In this document: positions 3,522 to 21,122 of the stretch, one piece after another | Layout: each line of letters opens with the position of its first letter | Position numbering within the stretch: the first letter of the stretch is position 1 | Source: a virus | Lineage: Duplodnaviria > Heunggongvirae > Uroviricota > Caudoviricetes | Reading direction: 5' to 3' (one strand) | IMG/VR virus record: IMGVR_UViG_2537562189_000007 | DNA: 34,565 bases | The notes under the pieces: model-generated | Told to the model about the DNA's origin: nothing | Database searches by the model: none | Seen by the model: only the letters and a program-made list of their open reading frames with translations | Translations under genes and position numbers: made by a program

Positions 3522-4271
3522 TTAACCCGCTGCACCATCCGTGACGGTAATTTCCGCCACTGCCGCAAACTCACCATTGCCGGTAACCACAGGGATCTGC
3601 GCTTTACCTGCCGCAACACCTTTCACGGTGATCGTGTTCCCTTTCACGGTAATGGTGGCGAAATTCTGATTCGCCGACGTGGCACGGAAGGTTTTATCCG
3701 TCGCCCCTTCCGGCTGAACAGCCACGGTCAGGGTGATATTCTGACCTTTTGCCACATTGCCCGTTGGTGGCGTCACGGTAATACCGGTGACCGGTGTGAT
3801 GTCCCCCTGATCTTCCGCCAGCGACGGACGACCGATATTGGTGATTTTTACCGTACGGGTGATCACCTCTTTGGCGGTCACCGCTTTACCAATGGCGCTC
3901 ACCCAGCCACGGAACACATCCACCGTACCGTTCGGGAAGCGAATTTTGTAGGCCCGGCTCTCACTGCTGTCAAACCAGGCAATCAAATCGCGCTGCCCTT
4001 TCTCACCCGGCTTCCAGGCCAGCGTAAAACTGGTGTCACCGGCAGATTTCTGCCCCTGCCCGGTGGATACCCAGTCAGCATCCTCATCATCCAGATAGTT
4101 ATCATCGTAGGATTCTGCCGTCATCTCGCCGGGGGTCAGATCCTTCACCTTCGCCAGTCGCTGCCAGTCATCGTCTGACAACGGGTTTGCATAAGCATCA
4201 CCAGTGCCGGTGTACACCCACAGTGTGGTACCGGAACCTTTCACCGGCTCAAGAGGATTTGGTGTTGCCAT
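3522..4271 (-). CDS. V: Major tail protein V with C-terminal Ig-like domain
   Basis: 249 aa; N-terminal two-thirds track lambda gpV ([46 protein letters not shown]); C-terminal ~90 aa ([20 protein letters not shown]...[27 protein letters not shown]) has the Big_2/Ig-like pattern. Confidence 0.9.
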
Positions 4272-11807: not shown

Positions 11808-12280
11808 ATATCGGCCTCATCACAACAGTCAATGACTGCCTTTTCCAGTGTGTCGCGGATCTCATCAACCACAATCTGTACTTCATTCAGTTGTGATGCG
11901 GTCCACCCCCTGTCCCTCTCCAGCCGGTCAGGCCAGGTTTCCAGTACCTGAACTATCGCTTTCACCACGACAGAAAAGGACCGCCTGACATCACTGACTG
12001 ACACGAGCAGACCGGTTTCCTGCTCAAATTTCAGTCGGTCACGTTCTGACTGGTACCATGCTTTACGCGCATGAGGATCCATTTCCTCGTTATCTACAGG
12101 CAGAGGAGCTTTCATCAGCTCGGCAAGGATATCTGTCAGTCGGTACAGTTTGAGATTGCTCTCATGACCACCGGCTGGGCTTATGTTTTTTACCCGAGCC
12201 GCGACAGTCTGTCGATGAGCACCGGATAATGCAGCCAGTTGGGAAATATTCAGATGCAGATTTTTTAATTCACGATCCAT
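11804..12280 (-). CDS. Terminase small subunit (Nu1-like)
   Basis: 158 aa with N-terminal HTH (LNISQLAALSGAHRQTVAARV), directly upstream of and overlapping the large subunit, about 150 bp from the candidate cosN. Confidence 0.7.
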   Translation of the reverse strand: MDRELKNLHLNISQLAALSGAHRQTVAARVKNISPAGGHESNLKLYRLTDILAELMKAPLPVDNEEMDPHARKAWYQSERDRLKFEQETGLLVSVSDVRRSFSVVVKAIVQVLETWPDRLERDRGWTASQLNEVQIVVDEIRDTLEKAVIDCCDEADM

Positions 12281-12419
12281 AACTTCCCCTGAAAATTATG
12301 TAAATACACGCCAGTGATGAACAAAAACAATCAACTTCGACACTAAAAATTTTTATTATGGTATATATCAATGATTTACACTGGTGGTGATGGTGCCATA
12401 AAAATCAAAAAATGCGCCT

Positions 12420-12445
12420 TTTTCCGCGCCGCCCGCCCCGTGTTC
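12420..12445. other. Candidate cos site (cosN core)
   Basis: Minus strand reads CGGGGCGGGCGGCGCGG, resembling lambda cosN GGGCGGCGACCT, about 150 bp upstream of the Nu1-like start with an A/T-rich stretch between (cosB-like). Confidence 0.4.
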
Positions 12446-12697
12446 AGGCCCATCCCACCAGGAGGACCCGCAAAATAATAATGATTATCATTTTTAATGT
12501 AGTCCGGTTTCTTCCACCATCGCACCGGACAGGCGACTATGAGGGGACAACGCCGCGCTCCGTTAACGCGGTAAACCCCGGTGTGTATCGTTTTTGATTA
12601 TCCCCGCACACTCGCGCAGAGGAGTCTCCCTGTCGGGCTGCGGTCTCTGTTAATGCAGGAATACAGCGACAATACCGCGCATGGATAATAAGGTCGC

Positions 12698-12922
12698 TCA
12701 ACACACTGGCTGTAATGCAGCAGATACCATGCGGCATTTAGCGGCATTCATCGTACACTCAACGGTTAGCTCTTCATTCGTGGCATTCACCTGAAAGGTC
12801 CGGGAGTGTAATTGCGTACATTTACCACTGAACGAACCTTCAACAAGAACACGACCACGCTGCAAAATACGGAACGGAATTGTTCCCTGAAAAGGCTTTA
12901 CGGTTACCAGTAATTTCTTCAT
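12698..12922 (-). CDS. Hypothetical protein downstream of Rz
   Basis: 74-aa ORF whose start overlaps the Rz stop (ATGA); no recognisable motifs. Confidence 0.2.
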
Positions 12923-13413
12923 ATATCTTCCGGATAATAAAAAGACAACTTAATGCACTGAGTACGGATATATTCCTGCGCCCCTTCCAGTTGCTTCTGC
13001 ATCGTCATCAGCCGCTCTCTGAGGGTGAAATAATCCCGTGTAACGGTGTCTGCCAGTTGGGGGCCGGTTGCATTATCCACGCGGGCGGTGCCGGTGGCTT
13101 CACGCACGGGACCTGGACAGGTGGCGTTGATACGCAGGCGCTTACGACCAGCGGCAACGTCAGCGCGAAGAGTTTCATTTTCAGCTCTCGCATCGGCTAA
13201 TTCCCTCGAGTATTTTGCATCGAGCGCAGCAACATCACGCTGGCGCACCTGCATATCAGTAATGGTTGCGTTTGCCAGCTCCAGCTCTCTGGCTTTTTTA
13301 TCGCGCTGCGCTTTGTAAGTGATGGCGTTATCGCGGTAATGATTCAGCCCCAGACTAAGCGCACCACAGGCCACCAGCAGAGCAATGATGACCACACACA
13401 GAACGCGGTTCAT
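12919..13413 (-). CDS. Rz: i-spanin Rz
   Basis: 164 aa with N-terminal TM segment ([16 protein letters not shown]) and coiled-coil periplasmic domain; contains an embedded +1 frame Rz1 ORF. Confidence 0.85.
13008..13193 (-). CDS. Rz1: o-spanin Rz1, embedded in Rz
   Basis: Lipoprotein signal ([15 protein letters not shown]) followed by a proline-rich mature region ([22 protein letters not shown]); wholly inside Rz in another frame. True start probably the internal Met. Confidence 0.75.
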
Positions 13414-13414
13414 T

Positions 13415-13528
13415 TCACCACCAACGGATTGCCCAGATCAGAACAGCAATGGCTATAATACGAATGGCAAAAGCTGCCGCTCTTGTTAAATCCAGACTGG
13501 CTGGCGTCTCCACTTCAATGCCTTTCAT
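13415..13528 (-). CDS. Small membrane peptide (37 aa) immediately upstream of Rz
   Basis: ATG at 13528, [37 protein letters not shown], stop TGA one nt before the Rz ATG; not in the ORF track (below size cutoff). Confidence 0.3.
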
Positions 13529-13621
13529 AATGGACAACCTCAGAAAGAATCTTTTATACTTCCTCACAGGGAAAGCACCTCCCTCACCATAATTTCTCCC
13601 TTGCCTTATCCAAGGTCAGAA

Positions 13622-13655
13622 ACACAAAACCCCGCTTGCTGCCAACAAACGGGGT
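13622..13655. terminator. Bidirectional intrinsic terminator between endolysin and Rz
   Basis: aaaaCCCCGcttgctgccaacaaaCGGGGttttt: GC stem flanked by A-run and T-run, so it can act on either strand. Confidence 0.45.
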
Positions 13656-13748
13656 TTTTACTTTTATTCACTTAGGTTTTGCCAGTTCGCAGGATTTCGT
13701 GTTATCCGTCCGCGTTGGTCAACGTCATTTTTCAGCAAAATATTCTGC

Positions 13749-14282
13749 TTATCTGTCGATTCCCCAGCACGCCAGCGCGCTCTCCTGGTCACGACGGGAT
13801 ACCTGACCGTAACAGTTATTTGAGCGAATACGGCAGTCTCTGCCACCGTCCTTAATCCACCAGCGAATCGCTTCGCATGCTCCCCTGCGATCACCTGCAT
13901 TAATTCGTCTGTAAAACGTCGACGGGAAACACTTACCGGGACCAATGTTGTACGGACAGAATGACGCGATCCCCGCTTTCTGGGGTTCGGTCAGCGGCAC
14001 TCTGATGTTTTTCTCCACCCACGTCAGCGCTTTATCACGCTCAATGGCGTTAACCTGGTCGCATTTCCCCTTCGACAGCTTCATGCCAGGAATCACAGGC
14101 TTACCATCCACCCGGGTGGCTCCACGGCAGATGGTCCAGATACCCGCACCATCACGGTATGCTGTGGTGTGGTTACCTTCTTTTTCGTCAAGCAACTGGT
14201 CGAGGATTTCAGGCGCAGAAGCCCCTGCACCAATCAGCGCCAGAACGGCAGCCGATAAACCATAGCGGAGTTTCCTGCTCAT
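13749..14282 (-). CDS. R: SAR endolysin (T4-lysozyme-like, GH24)
   Basis: N-terminal Gly/Ala-rich signal-anchor-release segment (GLSAAVLALIGAGASAP) followed by lysozyme catalytic region (LDEKEGNHTTAYRDGAGIWTICRGAT). Confidence 0.85.
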   Translation of the reverse strand: MSRKLRYGLSAAVLALIGAGASAPEILDQLLDEKEGNHTTAYRDGAGIWTICRGATRVDGKPVIPGMKLSKGKCDQVNAIERDKALTWVEKNIRVPLTEPQKAGIASFCPYNIGPGKCFPSTFYRRINAGDRRGACEAIRWWIKDGGRDCRIRSNNCYGQVSRRDQESALACWGIDR

Positions 14283-14286
14283 CAGC

Positions 14287-14502
14287 TTACTCTCCCCGCG
14301 CCGCCTTACGACGGTCTTCTTTAATCTTGAAATACAGGTTCGTCAGATATGTCAGCAGCCCAAACAGCAGACTCCCCAGCACACCTATTGCCGCCCACTG
14401 AGACGGGGAAACCCTGTCCAGCAACTGCAGGAACCAGTAGCCCGTTCCCACCGCTGACGTGGTGTATGACACACCTGTTGTGATTTTTTCCATCTGGTAC
14501 AT
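14287..14502 (-). CDS. S: Pinholin (phage 21 S21-like) with dual start
   Basis: 71 aa [71 protein letters not shown], recalled as near-identical in pattern to S21; two Met codons (M1, M4) as in holin/antiholin dual starts. Confidence 0.8.
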
Positions 14503-14578
14503 ACCCCGTCTCCCGCAATCCGGAAGCTCACAACAATATAAAGACCACCGGCACACACCGATGGTCCCTTGCGCATGC

Positions 14579-14824
14579 TTACATCATCATGTCGCTGTCA
14601 GGTGTGGGTTCACCGCCATCTGAAGCACTCCCCTCACCCGCGATGCCTTCCGGCTCCGGAGCTGCCGGTGCGCCCAGCAGTTCATCCAGAATGGCATCCA
14701 CTTCTGCATCAAGACGCAACTCAAGGTTCTGGCGGAGTTTCTGTTTCAGTGCGCTCAGGACTTCTTCAGAGCGCAGGACTTCCTTCACTGCCTCTGCAGT
14801 GACCAGGGATGTGATTTCTGACAT
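14579..14824 (-). CDS. Hypothetical acidic protein (81 aa) upstream of holin
   Basis: Internal ATG at 14824 of ORF 14579..14998 ([17 protein letters not shown]...); acidic Gly/Pro-rich C-terminus; weak RBS. Confidence 0.3.
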
Positions 14825-14870
14825 GGGATTTTCTCGTTGAAAAGGGTTGTTAAGAAAGTTGCCGCTAAAT

Positions 14871-15044
14871 GAGCGGCTCTTCGGGTTTGCTTCCGGCTGA
14901 CTGACTGGCGCTGATTTTCTCTGCGGCCCTTTTATCAATCTGCCTGCGCCAGCAATCGCGCACTGCCCTGTACCCACCCGAAAGAAGATACAGCACACAG
15001 ACCACCGTACAGAAGTACAGCATTAACTGGTTCAGAAATGTCAT
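14871..15044 (-). CDS. Hypothetical small membrane protein (57 aa)
   Basis: ATG at 15044 preceded by GGTGAG; MTFLNQLMLYFCTVVCVLYLLSGGYRAVRDCWRRQ..., one TM segment then a basic tail; not in the ORF track. Confidence 0.3.
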
Positions 15045-15088
15045 GGTTTCTCACCGTGATAGTTGACATGATTTACTTATTTTTGTAG

Positions 15089-15110
15089 AAAAACACCGCA
15101 GACTTCGGTG
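15089..15110 (-). terminator. Intrinsic terminator between nanS-p-like gene and lysis region
   Basis: Minus strand CACCGAAGTCTGCGGTG hairpin followed by TTTTT. Confidence 0.4.
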
Positions 15111-15194
15111 TCATCATGGTCGTTTTACCAGCCGCCAGCATTCATGTAGTGGACAAAGTTCATCCCTTTCCTTCATTGCTGGCGGCCTTTTTTA

Positions 15195-17171
15195 TCATGC
15201 CGCGGCATCCGCGTTGTTCACTTCCACCTTCACACTGTCAATCAGCAACGTATATGTCGCCGCCTTTGATATGTCTGTCAGTTGCAGTTTGTCCGCCGCC
15301 CCTGATGCCGGAGATTTCACCAGTGTGAACGGTGTACCCCGTTTCTCATCCAGTACCGGCGTCACCTGAATGCTGTTGTTTCCGGCAAACTCAAAAGCCA
15401 GTGTGTGCCATCCGTTATCAAAGACCCCGAACGTATCCAGCTTCGCATTCTGCTTCTTGTGGTACATCGCGTTCAGGTTCGTCGCATCCGTCTGCAGGAA
15501 GAAGGACATCAGCATGTCGTTGCCTTCCTCTGACAGCGTCACTCCCTCCGGCAGGGACGACAACTGCCAGTAAATACCCAGGGCAAACTGATTCGGCACC
15601 AGTGCGCCCGGCACCTTAAACCGCACGCTCACACGTCCACCTTTCTTCAGCAACTCTGCTCCCTGCCCGGCGGCATCATGCTCCAGAAACCAGATGTGGC
15701 TTTCCGGTTTGTTCAGTTGCAGGGCCTTACCACCGGTGGCACCCTCATCACTGACCACAGCCTCAGCGATGTTTTTATTAACACTGTCTCCGCTCGCCGG
15801 TTTGTGATAATAGCGCCAGCCCTGTGATGCCAGGTCTTCACCGGACGCCAGCAGACTCATCAGGGTTCGGTTACTGACCGGGGCTTCCGGCTCTCTCTCC
15901 GGGCCTTCACCGGAAGGTCCGGTGGGCTTCACCGTATCAGGCTGTTTTCCGGTAATGAATTCAGCGGTTCTCCCGGCATGCACCAGAATCGCCGTTGCCA
16001 GACGGTCGGAAATAATCCCACGGCGAGCCCATGAACTGAAATGGCTGGCCCTGTCCACAGATGTCCAGGTCTTCTGGTCATTACGCCACTTTGAACCGTA
16101 ATAACCGACGGCTTCCAGGTCCGGGTCTTCTGCCGGGTTATTGGTCTGCACATTCGCACCATTCTCATCCGTCATTAACGGTACAAAGAAAATGTTCTGC
16201 GACTCCTTCCCCTTATACCCTCCGTATACTGATGCATACCCTTCCGCATGACGCTGCTTCCAGAAATACGTTGTGTCCCCGCAAATCCACGGTACCGCTG
16301 ATGCGCTGCCTCCTGTGCTCTGTGATGCCTGACCGGCAAGCTCCGTTCTGAACTGATTCACCATCGCACTAAACAGCCCCGGATGCTGCGCATGCGTCCC
16401 CACTGCCGCATCACCTTCTCCCTGCATCCACACCACCGCAAGCAGACGGTTTTTCGGGTTCTTCGCCAGTGCGGCTTTAGTCCGGCTCACCAAATCCTGA
16501 TACAGCGGCTTACCCACACCCCAGCGCAGTGAATTTTCCGATGCACCGGCTGATTCGCTGTATGTGCCGTCTGCACCCGTTGTGAATGCCGAAGCACCAC
16601 GGCAGCACGGAACCAGCAGAATGCCCGCATTCGCCGGTATAAACGGCAGCAGTTTTTTGGCGATATGCAGCCCCTGCCCCACGGTTCCGTACTGCCCCTT
16701 TGACAGGTCCGCTTTCGGATGGTTAAGACGGCTCATGTCCTGCACATCATGCAGACAATGGTCCGCCGGAATAATGTCGTTATACTTACAGGCGGCACCG
16801 CCCGGTGTCACCGTACTGCGGCGCGCCAGCTGCTTAATACGCGGGTCCGGACGGTCATATGTCTCCGGCAGCGGAAGGCCTTCACCATACGACATGCCGT
16901 TTGACTGCCCTGCCAGAACCACAACAAAGTAATACTCCGGGTCGCTGGTGGCGCTGATTACTGTGCCTTCTCCATCCGACGGCTTCACCACCACAGGTGT
17001 GCTCACATCACCTTCTGCGACAATCGCCTGAATAAGTGCTGCGCCATCATCCGTATACGAAGAAAACGGCCCGCCGTATGGCTGCCATCCTTCACGAATT
17101 TTTTGAGCAAGTGTATCAGCAAGGTCTGACGGCGACGCCGCCCTGACCACGTCATAGTGTTTAAATGCCAT
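15195..17171 (-). CDS. nanS: Prophage sialate O-acetylesterase (NanS-p-like)
   Basis: 658 aa; N-terminal DUF1737-like segment, SASA esterase core with GQSN motif (VVVLAGQSNGMSYGEG), C-terminal carbohydrate-binding-like region; GGGAGG RBS; location between tRNAs and holin as in EHEC lambdoid prophages. Confidence 0.8.
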   Translation of the reverse strand: MAFKHYDVVRAASPSDLADTLAQKIREGWQPYGGPFSSYTDDGAALIQAIVAEGDVSTPVVVKPSDGEGTVISATSDPEYYFVVVLAGQSNGMSYGEGLPLPETYDRPDPRIKQLARRSTVTPGGAACKYNDIIPADHCLHDVQDMSRLNHPKADLSKGQYGTVGQGLHIAKKLLPFIPANAGILLVPCCRGASAFTTGADGTYSESAGASENSLRWGVGKPLYQDLVSRTKAALAKNPKNRLLAVVWMQGEGDAAVGTHAQHPGLFSAMVNQFRTELAGQASQSTGGSASAVPWICGDTTYFWKQRHAEGYASVYGGYKGKESQNIFFVPLMTDENGANVQTNNPAEDPDLEAVGYYGSKWRNDQKTWTSVDRASHFSSWARRGIISDRLATAILVHAGRTAEFITGKQPDTVKPTGPSGEGPEREPEAPVSNRTLMSLLASGEDLASQGWRYYHKPASGDSVNKNIAEAVVSDEGATGGKALQLNKPESHIWFLEHDAAGQGAELLKKGGRVSVRFKVPGALVPNQFALGIYWQLSSLPEGVTLSEEGNDMLMSFFLQTDATNLNAMYHKKQNAKLDTFGVFDNGWHTLAFEFAGNNSIQVTPVLDEKRGTPFTLVKSPASGAADKLQLTDISKAATYTLLIDSVKVEVNNADAAA

Positions 17172-17367
17172 GAATCCTCCCGGCCGGGATAATGTTGTGA
17201 GTCAGATAAGGGGCGGGCTGAAGTCCGGAAGTTACAGGACAATGACAGAAGGAAGACTACAGCCCGCAATACGAAAAAGGCCGCGCAGTTGCGCAGAGTG
17301 ATTACTGTCGGGTATTATTCGCCAGCTGAAAAATTGATTACTTCACGTTTTGTTGTTTATTCCTTGC

Positions 17368-17397
17368 TGCCCGCGTCTCCCGGCGCGGGCTTTTTTT
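17368..17397 (+). terminator. Intrinsic terminator (plus strand)
   Basis: GCCCGCGtctcccggCGCGGGC followed by TTTTTTT. Confidence 0.55.
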
Positions 17398-17427
17398 GCA
17401 TGTAAAAAGGCTCCTGCGATGAGGAGC
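17397..17427 (-). terminator. Intrinsic terminator (minus strand)
   Basis: Minus strand AGGCTCCTcatcgcAGGAGCCT (8-bp stem) followed by TTTTT; back-to-back with the plus-strand terminator. Confidence 0.5.
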
Positions 17428-17456
17428 CTGGATATATGCCTAATCTCTGTATACAG

Positions 17457-17650
17457 CATGATGCCGGGTGCCTCCCGGTGAATTCTGCAATGACCAGACA
17501 GAATCCGCAACTTGCCTATACAATACGCAACCAAACATCTGTCATTATGCCCCTCCGCTCAGGGGGATTCATCATGCAGGATTTTTTTAACAAATGCTCA
17601 GCCAGACAGGCAACCGTCAACTGACTGAATTGTGAGTGATTTAACATTTC
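17457..17650. repeat. Tandem direct repeat, copy 1 (period ~269 bp)
   Basis: Shares with copy 2 the blocks catg(a/g)tgccgggtgcctcccggtga, atgcccctccgc(t/a)cagggggattca(t/c)catgc and ttttaacaaat(g/a)ctcag...gacaggcaac(c/t)gtcaactgactgaattgtgag; the middle ~70 bp is diverged. Confidence 0.6.
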
Positions 17651-17674
17651 ACTGCCCGGTGCCTTCCCCTCATT

Positions 17675-17697
17675 AAAAAGCCCCTCCGGAGAGGGGC
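17675..17697 (-). terminator. Intrinsic terminator between the two repeat copies
   Basis: Palindrome GCCCCTCcggaGAGGGGC preceded on the plus strand by AAAAA, so the minus strand has hairpin plus TTTTT. Confidence 0.55.
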
Positions 17698-17725
17698 TAA
17701 AGCCGCGTATCTGTATCATCATGCG

Positions 17726-17916
17726 CATGGTGCCGGGTGCCTCCCGGTGAGTTCAGTATCAGCACCTGAACCCGCACCAGATAAGGGATATAACCAACCA
17801 CCTGTCGCTGATATGCCCCTCCGCACAGGGGGATTCACCATGCCAGTTTCTTTTAACAAATACTCAGTCTGACAGGCAACTGTCAACTGACTGAATTGTG
17901 AGACATTTAAAATTTT
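17726..17916. repeat. Tandem direct repeat, copy 2
   Basis: See copy 1; begins 269 bp after it with the same conserved blocks. Confidence 0.6.
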
Positions 17917-18005
17917 CGGGGCATGACTGATACCCGGCTAACCACCTGATGCTTCCTTTTTTAGCAACAAACAGGTCCACCAAAGTGAGACAGAAAAAAT
18001 AAGTG

Positions 18006-18082
18006 TGGCGCGTTGTACTGGATTCGAACCAGTGACCGATTGCTTAGAAGGCAATTGCTCTGTCCGGCTGAGCTAACAACGC
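18006..18082 (-). tRNA. argO: tRNA-Arg (anticodon UCU)
   Basis: Minus strand folds as a 77-nt cloverleaf GCGTTGT/ACAACGC acceptor, anticodon loop CUUCUAA, T-loop GGTTCGAATCC, encoded CCA. Confidence 0.8.
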
Positions 18083-18095
18083 TGAATACCGATAA

Positions 18096-18172
18096 TGGAC
18101 CGCCATCGAGGACTCGAACCCCGCGCAACCAGCTTCGAAGGCTGACGCTCTATCCCGATGAGCTAATGGCGG
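18096..18172 (-). tRNA. argN: tRNA-Arg (anticodon UCG)
   Basis: 77-nt cloverleaf with acceptor CCGCCAT/ATGGCGG, anticodon loop CUUCGAA, T-loop GGTTCGAGTCC, encoded CCA. Gene symbol by synteny with the ileZ-argN-argO cluster. Confidence 0.7.
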
Positions 18173-18181
18173 TATGTGATA

Positions 18182-18257
18182 TGGTGGCCCTTGCTGGATT
18201 TGAACCAGCGACCTGGCGATTATGAGTCGCTCGCTCTCACCACTGAGCTAAAGGGCC
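18182..18257 (-). tRNA. ileZ: tRNA with CAU anticodon, ileX-like (tRNA-Ile2; Met not excluded)
   Basis: 76-nt cloverleaf GGCCCTT...AAGGGCC-A-CCA, anticodon loop CUCAUAA; overall close to E. coli ileX as recalled. Confidence 0.65.
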
Positions 18258-18297
18258 GAGTGCAGGATAATAACGGTACGTAACTAATCCTGCAATA

Positions 18298-19356
18298 TCA
18301 TCCGTTCTGACTGGCTAAATCCTGAACTTCCCTGACCGTCTGCTCAAAACGTTCAGTCTCCAGCTCAACACCAGTTGCACGACGCCCCAGTGCCATCGCG
18401 GCTTTGGCTGTCGAACCCGACCCCATGAAAAAATCTGCAACCAGGTCCCCCGGACGACTGCTCGCGCTGATTATCTGCTGCAGCATTTCTGCCGGTTTTT
18501 CGCACGGATGTTTCCCGGGATAGTACTGCACCGGTTTATGCGTCCACACATCGGTGTACGGCACCTGCGCCGTCACGCCAAAATACCGCCGCTGATGCTT
18601 ATATTCACTCTGCAGTTCCGCATACTGCCGGTTCAGTGAAGTATACGTCTCCAGCAGCTGGTGGTGGGGCTTCTCCAGTTCACCCCGCTGATGCTTCTCT
18701 TCTGCCACCCGGGCAAACAGCGCCTGTAATTTCAGATAATCACTTTCGTTCGGCAGTTGCCACTGACTGGCACTGAACCAGTGCGACACCATGTTTTTCT
18801 TTCCTGTGGCATCCACTATCTGTTTTGCCGTTATCCCCAGGGCAGCACGCGCATCACGAAAGTAAGCAATCAGCGGAGCCATCACATGCTGTTTCAGTGC
18901 CCTGCCCTTCGCCTCATACCCGGCATCTTTCGGACGATACGGCCCCTGATAATGTTCCGCGAACAGAATGCGCTCTGTGGCGGGGAAATACGCCCTCAGG
19001 CTTTCCTTGTTGCACCCGTTCCAGCGTCCGGACGGCTTCGCCCAGATAATATGGTTCAGCACACTGAAGCGTTCACGCATCATGATTTCAATGTCAGATG
19101 CCAGGCGATGGCCACAGAACAGGTAAAGACTTCCGGCAGGTTTCAGCACCCGCCAGAACTGCGCAAGACACTGGTCCAGCCACTTCAGGTAATCATCGTC
19201 GCCCTTCCACTGGTTATCCCAGCCCTCAGGCTTCACTTTAAAGTACGGCGGATCCGTGACTATCAGGTCAACAGAATTTTCGGGTAACGACCGGATAAAT
19301 TCCAGGCAGTCGGCGTTGATTAACTCACAACTGGATATTTTTACAGTGTTAAACAT
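18298..19356 (-). CDS. DNA methyltransferase (N6-adenine/N4-cytosine, beta class)
   Basis: 352 aa with motif IV DPPY near the N-terminus (LIVTDPPY) and AdoMet motif I near the C-terminus (DFFMGSGST). Confidence 0.85.
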   Translation of the reverse strand: MFNTVKISSCELINADCLEFIRSLPENSVDLIVTDPPYFKVKPEGWDNQWKGDDDYLKWLDQCLAQFWRVLKPAGSLYLFCGHRLASDIEIMMRERFSVLNHIIWAKPSGRWNGCNKESLRAYFPATERILFAEHYQGPYRPKDAGYEAKGRALKQHVMAPLIAYFRDARAALGITAKQIVDATGKKNMVSHWFSASQWQLPNESDYLKLQALFARVAEEKHQRGELEKPHHQLLETYTSLNRQYAELQSEYKHQRRYFGVTAQVPYTDVWTHKPVQYYPGKHPCEKPAEMLQQIISASSRPGDLVADFFMGSGSTAKAAMALGRRATGVELETERFEQTVREVQDLASQNG

Positions 19357-19492
19357 GGATCATTAAGCCTGTCTCTGATAGGCTCATTCTGCTTTTGCGC
19401 AAAGCAGTGGGCCTGAGGTTTGCTTGTGATCCAGACGCATGAGCAGATGGCTGGTGAGTGCCCCTAACACCCACCAGCCGCCCATTTACCAC

Positions 19493-19516
19493 AAATAAAA
19501 AAGCCTTCATGACTGA
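19493..19516 (-). terminator. Intrinsic terminator after the 77-aa ORF
   Basis: Minus strand GCCTTCAgtcaTGAAGGC followed by TTTTTT. Confidence 0.45.
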
Positions 19517-19740
19517 AGGCGTCTGTAACAACCGAACTGATAGTCTGCCAGACCCGCCATAACAAGCTGGGTCAGTATTAACTGGCAGCGTTCGCGTGAA
19601 AGGTAAGTATTCTGCGCAATCTCCCCGACTGTCGCCGGTTCGGTGACGCTTAATTCATTAAACACCACTCTGGCGGTTTCGGTCATATCCTGCTGTTTCA
19701 GCATGTCTTTTTCCCTTTTCCGGTTAACGTGACACACCAA
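19507..19740 (-). CDS. Hypothetical small protein, possible winged-helix
   Basis: 77-aa ORF (likely start MLKQQDMTETARVVFNEL...) between the candidate tR' and the methyltransferase. Confidence 0.35.
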   Translation of the reverse strand: MVCHVNRKREKDMLKQQDMTETARVVFNELSVTEPATVGEIAQNTYLSRERCQLILTQLVMAGLADYQFGCYRRLQS

Positions 19741-19826
19741 TAACTCTTGTCAAAAAAGCCAGCAAGCTGAAAGACCGGTATTAATAACCACCTGCACATT
19801 TTATGTACTGGCGTGATTTCAGTCAT

Positions 19827-19851
19827 AAAAAAACCCGCCTGGCGACGGGTG
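19827..19851 (-). terminator. Candidate tR' intrinsic terminator
   Basis: Minus strand CACCCGTCGCCAGGCGGG followed by TTTTTTT, about 70 nt downstream of the candidate late promoter. Confidence 0.5.
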
Positions 19852-19896
19852 TAAAAATCTTCTAACGTCAGGCATAAAACGCCCATCGTTAGGGCA

Positions 19897-19924
19897 AATT
19901 TACCACAGATTCGGGAAAAATCAA
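19897..19924 (-). promoter_or_regulatory. Candidate late promoter pR' (with qut region)
   Basis: Minus strand TTGATT - 16 nt - TGGTAAATT (extended -10 like) directly downstream of the Q-like gene stop. Confidence 0.35.
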
Positions 19925-19929
19925 CAAAG

Positions 19930-20751
19930 CTATCTGGTCACCTTTTTCAGTTGTTGTTCTGCCCATGCTTCTTCAATATCAAACTGCACCACCAGCGTAT
20001 CGTAAAAACGTTTAACTGTTTTTTTCCATGTATCAAGAGATATGGCATCGGTTACATTACATATGGCATTAAATGCCTCCGTTGAAGGTAATCTTTCATA
20101 GCCACGCCCACCACAACGCTGGCAGTTTCTGAAAACCGGCACACCCTGTTTTTCCGACTCTTCACGATGAATGGCAACACCGCGCCCACGACAATCTTTA
20201 CAGGCGGTGGAAACCTCCCCCTTTCCGCCACACTCCGGACAGGCAACTTTTACCACCTCCCTGACTTTTTTCCATTCCTCCCAGTAAGACGGATACACGC
20301 CTTTTGTGCACTTTGCCCACACTGGCGGCTTACCATCCGGATACTGGATCTTGTTTGTAAAAACCTCGCTTTCAATAAATTTTTTTCCGTGACAGCAGGG
20401 GCACTGTTTTTTGCTCGCCGCGCTACGGGCATAATCTTCAAACGCATACGAAGCCATAATACGCATCACTGCCGGTTTTATTTCTGCCGGGAGTTTTCTT
20501 AACGCCGCCACGCGATCACACCGACTGAGTGCATATTCTGTCAGCAATTCTGTTGCCCGCTCTCTGTCATTCATACTAATGCCCATTCTCCCAAGGAACG
20601 CAGAAAACCCCATCTCAGCCCGATTCTGTGTCATGCCCTGCGCGGCCATCACATCAGTGATACTCAGCGCATCTTTTGACGTTGAGGCCGATGCATCAGT
20701 CAGGCCGGGGGATTTTGGGGAGTAGTATTTCGGTAAATCTTCCAGTTTCAT
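19930..20751 (-). CDS. Putative late antiterminator Q-like protein with DnaJ-type zinc-finger repeats
   Basis: 273 aa; position (after rusA and DUF968, before pR'/tR'-like elements and the late genes) matches Q; three CxxCxGxG repeats (CPECGGKG, CKDCRGRG, CQRCGGRG) plus CPCCHG. Confidence 0.55.
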   Translation of the reverse strand: MKLEDLPKYYSPKSPGLTDASASTSKDALSITDVMAAQGMTQNRAEMGFSAFLGRMGISMNDRERATELLTEYALSRCDRVAALRKLPAEIKPAVMRIMASYAFEDYARSAASKKQCPCCHGKKFIESEVFTNKIQYPDGKPPVWAKCTKGVYPSYWEEWKKVREVVKVACPECGGKGEVSTACKDCRGRGVAIHREESEKQGVPVFRNCQRCGGRGYERLPSTEAFNAICNVTDAISLDTWKKTVKRFYDTLVVQFDIEEAWAEQQLKKVTR

Positions 20752-21122
20752 TTTTTGACCTGCCCTTCAAGCATTATGGGGTAAATCTTCACCCCCAGAC
20801 GTCCACCAGATACTGGCTGACCACGTACAATATTGATTTCATCAAACTGTTCATCGTCGATAAGCAGTCCCGCATGCGTCAGCGCATCCAGCGGTGCTTT
20901 CAGAATGTTGTCCAGGTCACGACGACGCTTATCCGGTGGCTCTGCAATAATTTTTATTGCCAGCCGTCCGGACAGGCTTAATTTCAGTCGCTGCTGGCGA
21001 ACAATAAACGCCACTGCCCGGCGATAACGCTCCCCGGCTTTTGATACAAAATATGTGCTGCCACGACGTCGCCAGTAAGTATTCACCGTCGGCGGGTAAG
21101 GCAAAACAAACTCTATACACAT
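20748..21122 (-). CDS. rusA: Holliday junction resolvase RusA
   Basis: RusA-like sequence (LPYPPTVNTYW..., PPDKRRRDLDNILKAPLDALTHAGLLIDDEQ); ATG at 21122 preceded by AAGGGGGG. Confidence 0.8.
   Translation of the reverse strand: MCIEFVLPYPPTVNTYWRRRGSTYFVSKAGERYRRAVAFIVRQQRLKLSLSGRLAIKIIAEPPDKRRRDLDNILKAPLDALTHAGLLIDDEQFDEINIVRGQPVSGGRLGVKIYPIMLEGQVKK

Follow-up and report, generated by a model that had tools for sequence, protein, structure and literature searches.

The stretch of DNA analysed here (the window; 34,565 nucleotides [nt], IMG/VR virus record IMGVR_UViG_2537562189_000007, Caudoviricetes) carries two small genes, DUF1378 and DUF826, between the prophage esterase gene nanS-p and the pinholin gene S. 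The pair consists of two intact genes of catalogued families that are under purifying selection, share the orientation of the late genes, are optional and move from one phage backbone to another. Together they form an optional two-gene cargo module lodged between nanS-p and a hairpin-guarded S leader. We suggest that the pair acts at the inner membrane as an accessory to lysis or release, independently of the holin it accompanies. The probability of this reading, its firmer parts included, is in our estimate roughly 40%, its functional part being speculative. An original prediction, made from the letters alone, had proposed two unannotated small genes with candidate antiholin-like or lysis-control functions; it was largely right in what it observed and mostly wrong in how it interpreted it.

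Both genes belong to established families, with scores over the gathering cut-off and the whole profile covered in each case. DUF1378 matches Pfam PF07125 along its full length (131.5 bits with the cut-off at 25, E 1e-38; residues 1-59 align to all 59 profile positions), and DUF826 matches PF05696 with residues 1-75 on positions 1-75 of 75 (137.2 bits against a cut-off of 25, E 2e-40). Pairwise Nei-Gojobori comparison across distinct alleles drawn from 148 related loci gave ratios of non-synonymous to synonymous substitution rates (dN/dS) of 0.23-0.28 for DUF1378 (36-61 distinct DNA alleles) and 0.18-0.49 for DUF826 (46-48 distinct DNA alleles), the higher values of the latter probably reflecting its variable tail. 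The two open reading frames (ORFs) are thus conserved and held by purifying selection, but they are neither new nor unannotated, as both are already catalogued as families, and in RefSeq the Prokaryotic Genome Annotation Pipeline (PGAP) assigns both names in roughly 1,000 of 5,426 complete Escherichia coli genomes (1,012-1,025, with a median of 3 copies per carrier). The nearest relatives of the window among complete E. coli genomes are 98-99% identical across this interval. A search of the literature under the 933W locus names and lysis-cassette descriptions returned no functional data for the two genes, and another literature match for 'DUF1378' was discarded as a misprint for DUF1738.

The DUF1378 ATG is preceded, at a distance of 5 nt, by the Shine-Dalgarno-like GGTGAG that had been pointed out as its ribosome-binding site (15055..15050, -); other alleles have GGTAAG, GGAAAG or GGGAGG at this site. 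The product had been described as a 57-residue protein with a single transmembrane segment. It does have one strongly hydrophobic segment (residues 3-21, the top 19-residue stretch, Kyte-Doolittle 1.98), and its length is 59 residues. The layout consists of an N-terminal transmembrane helix (residues ~3-24), a GGY junction, a basic cytoplasmic helix with a net charge of ~+4 and a short disordered tail, with residues 25-59 having an isoelectric point (pI) of 9.6 and containing R26, R29, R33, R34, K38, R39 and K43. The AlphaFold2 model shows one unbroken helix over residues 2-49. From hydropathy and charge (the positive-inside rule), the protein is predicted with fair confidence to be bitopic in the inner membrane, N-out/C-in, with ~3 periplasmic residues. 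L9, F11, V15, L20, S22, G23, G24 and Y25 are invariant in or just past the helix, and the polar or small residues among them (S22, G23, G24, Y25) suggest a specific intramembrane contact. Other members of Pfam DUF1378 and PHROG 494 have the same length, the N-terminal hydrophobic helix, the LYFCTxVCxLYLxSGGY motif and the basic KIDxxAAEK helix, and the window copy differs from them by only a few substitutions (e.g. F31C). A holin would be expected to match a holin family, or to combine at least one transmembrane domain with a charged C-terminus in a lysis cassette, and to be lethal when expressed. DUF1378 has one such domain and a charged C-terminus, it matched no holin family in Pfam or PHROGs, and every lysis-cassette context in which it occurs already has a bona fide holin. 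A 6-bp hairpin, GCCGCTCATTTAGCGGC, covers the DUF1378 stop codon at 14861-14877 (-) and is lost in some alleles (e.g. the L012 type).

The acidic 81-residue protein upstream of the pinholin was found as described (14824..14579, -). It has a pI of 4.05, with 18 D+E against 6 K+R (net -12), and all 6 Gly and 5 Pro lie in the tail (residues 51-81). In the AlphaFold2 model, helices at residues 2-17 and 20-49 are followed by a disordered, acidic, Gly/Pro-rich tail, and the predicted local distance difference test score (pLDDT) is 90-98 across residues 21-50 (10-residue block means). DUF826 is accordingly modelled as a soluble, strongly acidic two-helix protein. Its first 50 residues are nearly invariant, and the tail changes length through in-frame insertions and deletions. 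The window copy shares with Pfam DUF826 and PHROG 311 the full-length match, the 50-residue helical core and an acidic, variable tail whose last residues are MMM or MML; it differs in being a short-tailed form, other alleles having 84-90 residues, 56 in one Mu-like group and 127 in one case (L147). DUF826 C-termini read MMM, MML, MM or MMQ past a variable acidic Pro-rich linker in lambdoid and Mu-like copies alike (MMM in the window, 14579-14590, -), and this Met-rich end may be a short C-terminal motif. The spacer between the two genes is 25-40 nt long in other alleles (28-43 nt when the count begins at the stop codon), and its 3' part, CGAGAAAATCCCATG, is kept in 9 of 10 variants, the exception being L147. 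Profile searches with the two families against solved structures turned up no meaningful match (a tail-spike coiled coil ranked first, at E 0.24), the DUF826 model had no Foldseek match in the PDB, NCBIfam holds no family for either protein, and neither matched a PADLOC defence model at E <= 0.1.

The two frames had also been said to overlap out of frame. They are in fact separated by 40 nt (14864..14825), and an apparent overlap arises only if the start of DUF826 is moved up to an in-frame GTG at 14998. The resulting 139-residue ORF, which overlaps the 3' half of DUF1378, and similarly long calls in databases (phrog_8301, P0004, P0024 and the 148-residue ST933Wp43 of phage 933W) could be taken to mean that the ORFs arose by chance or are what a frameshift left of a single larger gene. 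This explanation is refuted by the data: each ORF has its own full-length profile match and evolves under purifying selection, the stretch that stays open upstream of the DUF826 ATG differs widely from locus to locus (66, 62, 35, 27 or 5 codons), and elsewhere the genes occur separately or in reversed order. As a true gene the extended form was rejected as well, the Pfam profile beginning at Met1 of the 81-residue form and the extension not being conserved. In the RefSeq record of 933W (L083, NC_000924; 3525-3701 and 3571-4017), the 148-residue call hides an intact, unannotated DUF1378 that is 97% identical to the window copy.

The suggested link to lysis or release lies in the company that DUF1378 keeps. 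A HMMER search over 1.84 billion cluster representatives gave 41 DUF1378 clusters at E <= 1e-3, and named homologues of both proteins come nearly all from Escherichia or Shigella. Neighbours in the 148 fetched loci, typed by tblastn and Pfam, fall into seven arrangements. Lambdoid prophages (A; ~85 loci and the window) have the order nanS-p, DUF1378, DUF826, S (P21 type), R, Rz; here nanS-p identity ranges over 56-99% and the distance from S to R varies, and the DUF1378-DUF826-S spacing is near constant (L002, L007, L009, L034 and others shift by ~9-12 nt). Two groups are Mu-like: one (B; 27 loci, L120-L146) reads gin, nanS-p-like, DUF1378, DUF826, com/mom, and the other (D; 7 loci) reads tail fibre, tail-fibre assembly, DUF1378, Dam methylase, with DUF826 present in 3 of the 7 (L108-L110) and placed before DUF1378. 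Podoviruses like 'Stenotrophomonas phage' BUCT709 (C; 25 loci) carry a P21-type holin, an endolysin of the signal-arrest-release (SAR) type, Rz/Rz1, DUF1378 and a tailspike; in BUCT709 itself (L082) the DUF1378 ATG overlaps the Rz stop (ATGA), and the other 24 loci share its gene coordinates by tblastn. Smaller groups comprise an HP1-type holin, a SAR-type lysozyme, Rz/Rz1 and DUF1378 (E; 2 loci, L115/L116), and a lambda-S-type holin, a GH108 endolysin, DUF7940, Rz, Rz1 and DUF1378 (F; 3 loci, L117-L119), in which the DUF1378 start overlaps the Rz1 stop (ATGA) in L117 and an extra 74-residue ORF lies between the two genes in L119. The contexts of the 'GGW' subfamily were read from these last five loci. 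Finally, one P2-like locus (G; L149) has lysB/lysC-like genes, a nanS-p-like gene, DUF1378, gpR, gpS and baseplate genes.

DUF1378 therefore abuts the lysis cassette in 5 of the 7 arrangements, lying upstream of S or after Rz/Rz1, Rz1, or lysB/lysC plus nanS-p; relative to the endolysin gene it is downstream in four arrangements and upstream in the window. The accompanying holins belong to three families, the endolysins are both SAR and soluble, and the pair is oriented with the late genes in 148 of 148 loci. Genome-contig scans (alignment A3, P0262) and metagenome scans (P0270, P0269) yielded no confirmed relative, and when the remotest DUF1378 relatives (P0270, P0268, P0274) were used to scan IMG/VR, nothing was found; the alignment of distant DUF1378 members is too divergent for a pattern search.

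DUF826 was always found directly beside DUF1378 (81 of 81 fetched loci with DUF826, plus the Mu-like L120-L146), and DUF1378 often occurs without DUF826. Because of this strict co-occurrence in the sample and the complementary charge of the two proteins, we infer with fair confidence that they are partners. A crude consensus scan of the coding strand, run on the window and on an Stx2a phage copy, detected no promoter resembling the sigma-70 type. Given the lack of a detected promoter of its own and the spanin stop/start overlaps in two lineages (L082, L117), the pair most likely shares the Q-modified pR' transcript of the late genes, for which our confidence is fair. In the mechanism that we propose, DUF1378 would be the core component, DUF826 would most likely dock on its predicted basic cytoplasmic helix, and the pair would act at the inner membrane late in infection. 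It would assist lysis or release without being essential to either, perhaps tuning the timing or efficiency of envelope disruption, and its role would be independent of holin kind rather than that of an antiholin to this pinholin.

The original prediction had derived antiholin candidacy from adjacency, and regulators dedicated to the neighbouring S21-type pinholin would indeed be consistent with a pair immediately upstream of S, with one protein being small and membrane-borne, with a DUF1378-DUF826-S spacing that is nearly fixed while nanS-p identity and the S-to-R distance vary, and with an N-terminal extension of S (MYQM) that lacks a basic residue between its Met codons. Such an antiholin should be present wherever an S21 holin is and specific to that family, and the pair is neither. 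By megablast, the S gene of the window has 8,845 places in 2,435 E. coli genomes and the two-gene module has 2,649 places in 1,012; some 70% of the S21-type holin genes closely related to it in E. coli are without the pair nearby, a figure that is approximate because megablast misses copies under ~85% identity. In a sequence type 131 (ST131) prophage, nanS-p is followed directly by the hairpin of the S leader and then by S, and in another prophage lacking the pair just a nanS-p remnant precedes S. Holins without the pair have the same MYQM or MDQM start, so that its presence tracks no holin feature. Further to that, DUF1378 is found with HP1-type and lambda-S-type holins and with a non-SAR GH108 endolysin, no holin is near in the Mu-like loci, and a terminator-like hairpin stands between the pair and S. 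The pair travels as an optional load in late operons of several phages that are unrelated to one another and is thus not needed by the neighbouring holin, and we regard a dedicated antiholin function as very improbable. Of the proposed lysis control, what may stand is the looser role of a lysis-phase accessory.

The hairpin between the pair and S is found in every allele, among them prophages without the pair (L150 and L151, ~2940-2985; see also L083, ~4030-4065), and shows 3 compensatory pairs in 6 sequences; 933W has another stem sequence at the same position. Because it is kept in prophages lacking the pair, it belongs to the S leader, where it probably stops transcripts that Q has not modified from reaching the lysis genes. 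The terminator predicted at 15089..15110, ahead of DUF1378, fared less well. A hairpin (15111..15093) followed by UUUUCU is present, but it is weak (z -1.2, with 25 of 200 shuffles folding as well), was not picked up by the consensus scan, and its stem is not conserved: among 35 variants upstream of DUF1378 only the allele group of the window itself has it intact, the nearest alleles have an uncompensated change of the 3' arm from CGGTGT to CGATAT or CGACAT, and most alleles are without any adjacent hairpin. The T-run at 15088-15092, ~45-50 nt before the DUF1378 ATG, is invariant in eight deeply diverged spacers (alignment A8), and so is a GTCAA box at ~15062-15066, ~20-28 nt before the ATG, in the same spacers, including Mu-like and P2-like copies. 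When 12000-21000 was searched against Rfam, no RNA family fell within 14500-15250.

A further hairpin, directly 3' of the nanS-p stop, has folding energies between -19 and -29 kcal/mol among 8 deeply diverged copies on three phage backbones, with both arms changed together, and was seen in lambdoid, Mu-like and P2-like copies (e.g. L001, ~2892-2930; L120, L139, L147, L149). It has no U-run on the late strand; the plus strand reads the hairpin and then T6-7, which is canonically terminator-like. The retention of this covarying hairpin, of the T-run and of the GTCAA box in the spacer could be explained if DUF1378, with or without DUF826, served NanS-p, as a small device in the membrane through which this esterase, which lacks a signal peptide, is helped into or out of the envelope, or by which its release is tied to lysis. 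It also fits that nanS-p lies immediately upstream of DUF1378, across a spacer of 135-150 nt, on three unrelated backbones (lambdoid, Mu-like and P2-like) despite protein divergence to ~60% identity. However, DUF1378 occurs without nanS-p in four arrangements, nanS-p directly precedes S without the pair in ST131-type prophages, a 59-residue single-helix protein shows no feature of a known exporter, and block co-transfer of neighbours explains the linkage equally well. We therefore consider a role in NanS-p export or release improbable. As a separate observation, nanS-p-like esterases (SASA + DUF6645) exist outside lambdoid phages, in the Mu-like loci L120-L146 (gin to com/mom) and in the P2-like L149 (lysB/lysC to gpR), and DUF1378 is immediately downstream of every one of these genes.

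Several observations weigh against a lysis or release accessory. Since most S21-type holins do without the pair, any effect on lysis must be dispensable. The Mu-like copies lie between gin and com/mom or after a tail-fibre assembly gene, and no lysis gene was found within the 2-4 kb of flanking DNA examined on each side. The differing holins, endolysins and backbones beside DUF1378 mean that it has no specific protein partner among them. Loci lacking DUF826 retain the same KIDxxAAEK helix in DUF1378, which speaks against docking in particular, and a published account mentions the DUF826 and DUF1378 ORFs between nanS-p and S as proteins of unknown function (PMC10462455). Lastly, the positions in all seven contexts are module junctions where unrelated cargo gathers (Q-S, Rz-terminase, Rz-tailspike, lysC-gpR, Tfa-Dam, gin-mom), so that adjacency to lysis genes could be incidental.

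This last point leads to the possibility that the pair has nothing to do with lysis and is a module of the moron type, whose membrane protein would act on a target in the host or in incoming phage, e.g. in superinfection exclusion at the inner membrane or in modulation of a host membrane protein. The module is optional, the family is tiny and taxonomically narrow (the 41 clusters are nearly all from Escherichia/Shigella prophages), and E. coli genomes carrying the pair hold several copies, all of which would suit such cargo. On the other side, the overlap of a spanin stop with the DUF1378 start in two lineages is the packing of operon members, the hairpin downstream of the pair goes with the S leader and not with the module, and no PADLOC defence model matched. 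A moron would also be expected to have its own promoter and its own terminator; neither was detected, which is a weak result given how crude the consensus scan is. We think that unrelated cargo is possible, though on the whole unlikely, and retain the holin-independent lysis or release accessory as our working explanation.

Among known systems, Mu releasin gp25 (DUF2730) has an N-out/C-in anchor with ~4 periplasmic residues, an anionic cytoplasmic part, a gene placed after the spanins, and late expression (PMC9239132). DUF1378 resembles it in being small and predicted N-out/C-in, with basic residues at the membrane-cytoplasm junction and a position after spanin genes in some arrangements. Unlike gp25, which has its own anionic cytoplasmic domain, DUF1378 has a cytoplasmic part that is basic and short, and the separate acidic DUF826 could supply what is missing. 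A second difference is that the window phage has a pinholin and so needs no releasin, and DUF1378 occurs with the soluble GH108 endolysin as well. The DUF1378 protein had no DUF2730 profile match at E <= 0.1, and BLASTP against Mu gp25 produced no alignment. By analogy of architecture and gene position, gp25 is the closest functional analogue, and DUF1378 is not a member of its family. Mycobacteriophages offer another parallel in single-helix holin partners, among them Ms6 Gp5. LysF1b is described as a mycobacteriophage lysis-region protein with a single transmembrane domain that lies beside a holin-like protein with two such domains and regulates lysis (PMC13056207). The likeness to DUF1378 is one of architecture only, hosts and sequences being unrelated. 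As for DUF826, P1 LydB is a cytoplasmic antiholin factor. T4 RIII is described as having the same function (PMC8385771). DUF826 is by description similar to both in being a small soluble cytoplasmic protein of a phage with regulated lysis, and it differs from them in that it tracks DUF1378 and not the holin. It may be that DUF1378 with DUF826 as a detachable acidic subunit forms a new class of holin-independent lysis accessory, membrane-tethered and comparable in function to Mu releasin or the single-helix holin partners, which would set the moment or the extent of envelope failure, but this bolder proposal we hold to be doubtful.

Features of the window are collected in the table below. On the minus strand, the late operon reads Q, DNA methylase, three tRNAs, two STnc100 copies, nanS-p, DUF1378, DUF826, the terminator-like hairpin, S, R and Rz/Rz1. 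There is no stx gene between Q and nanS-p, and because of this interval without stx the window is a Shiga toxin (Stx)-negative lambdoid prophage of the Stx-phage type.

Table. Features of the late region of the window around the DUF1378-DUF826 pair
Feature	Position	Strand	Remarks
Antiterminator Q	19930..20751	-	
DNA methylase	18298..19356	-	
Three tRNAs	18006..18257	-	upstream of nanS-p
nanS-p, prophage sialate O-acetylesterase, 658 aa	15195..17171	-	Pfam DUF1737 + SASA + DUF6645
Spacer nanS-p to DUF1378			150 nt in the window
A7 run and GC-rich hairpin	15131..15193		arms 15186..15178 and 15139..15131; directly 3' of the nanS-p stop
Weak hairpin (15111..15093) and U-run, the predicted 'terminator'	15088..15111	-	6-7 bp, -9.4 kcal/mol
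DUF1378 gene, 59 aa	14865..15044	-	Pfam PF07125, 131.5 bits; phrog_494
Spacer DUF1378 to DUF826, 40 nt	14825..14864	-	DUF826 start preceded by a weak ribosome-binding site, GAG(A)
DUF826 gene, 81 aa	14579..14824	-	Pfam PF05696, 137.2 bits; phrog_311
S leader		-	76 nt between DUF826 and S
S-leader hairpin (14569..14540), 13 bp, and U-rich run	14530..14569	-	-19 to -20.5 kcal/mol
S, S21-type class II holin (pinholin), 71 aa	14287..14502	-	two starts (MYQM); Pfam Phage_holin_2_1, 112.8 bits
R, endolysin, 177 aa	13749..14282	-	hydrophobic N-terminal segment (SAR type), N-terminus MSRKLRYGLSAAVLALIGAGASAP; Pfam Phage_lysozyme
Rz i-spanin	12919..13413	-	Pfam Phage_lysis, 164.7 bits
Rz1 lipoprotein ORF embedded in Rz	13008..13193	-	from the ORF list

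Some observations on the surroundings of the pair may be recorded here. Two tandem copies of the small RNA STnc100 (Rfam RF02076; 17398-17606 and 17668-17872, -, 183 and 146 bits) sit between the tRNA cluster and nanS-p, each with a terminator-like hairpin in its 3' part (17429..17408 and 17698..17679). The two in-frame starts of the window holin (MYQM, 14491-14502) have no basic residue between them, in contrast to the MK.M starts of S21 and the BUCT709 holin. The GenBank record of BUCT709 (L082, OM816835.1) leaves this P21-type holin unannotated (2721-2936; 71 residues, MKM start, Pfam 75 bits) and also omits an embedded Rz1-like lipoprotein ORF at 3697-3891. The N-terminus of the BUCT709 endolysin is closely like that of the endolysin of the E. 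coli prophage in the window, and the stated host of this phage therefore merits a check.

To a large extent our result is one of clean-up: the genes are real, catalogued and often misannotated, as in 933W, and the antiholin idea is unsupported. The comparative pattern, in which DUF1378 lies at the edges of lysis cassettes or after nanS-p on four kinds of backbone (lambdoid, Mu-like, P2-like and podovirus) and has an acidic partner, is a useful lead rather than a discovery, and it is the first functional lead for the two families. The pair is present in about one fifth of complete E. coli genomes, often in multiple copies. Since Stx and NanS-p exit the cell through phage lysis, a conserved factor that shifts the timing or efficiency of lysis would bear on toxin release, and a new class of lysis accessory, if true, would influence how Shiga toxin, NanS-p and virions are released from the many prophages of enterohaemorrhagic E. 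coli in which the pair is carried.

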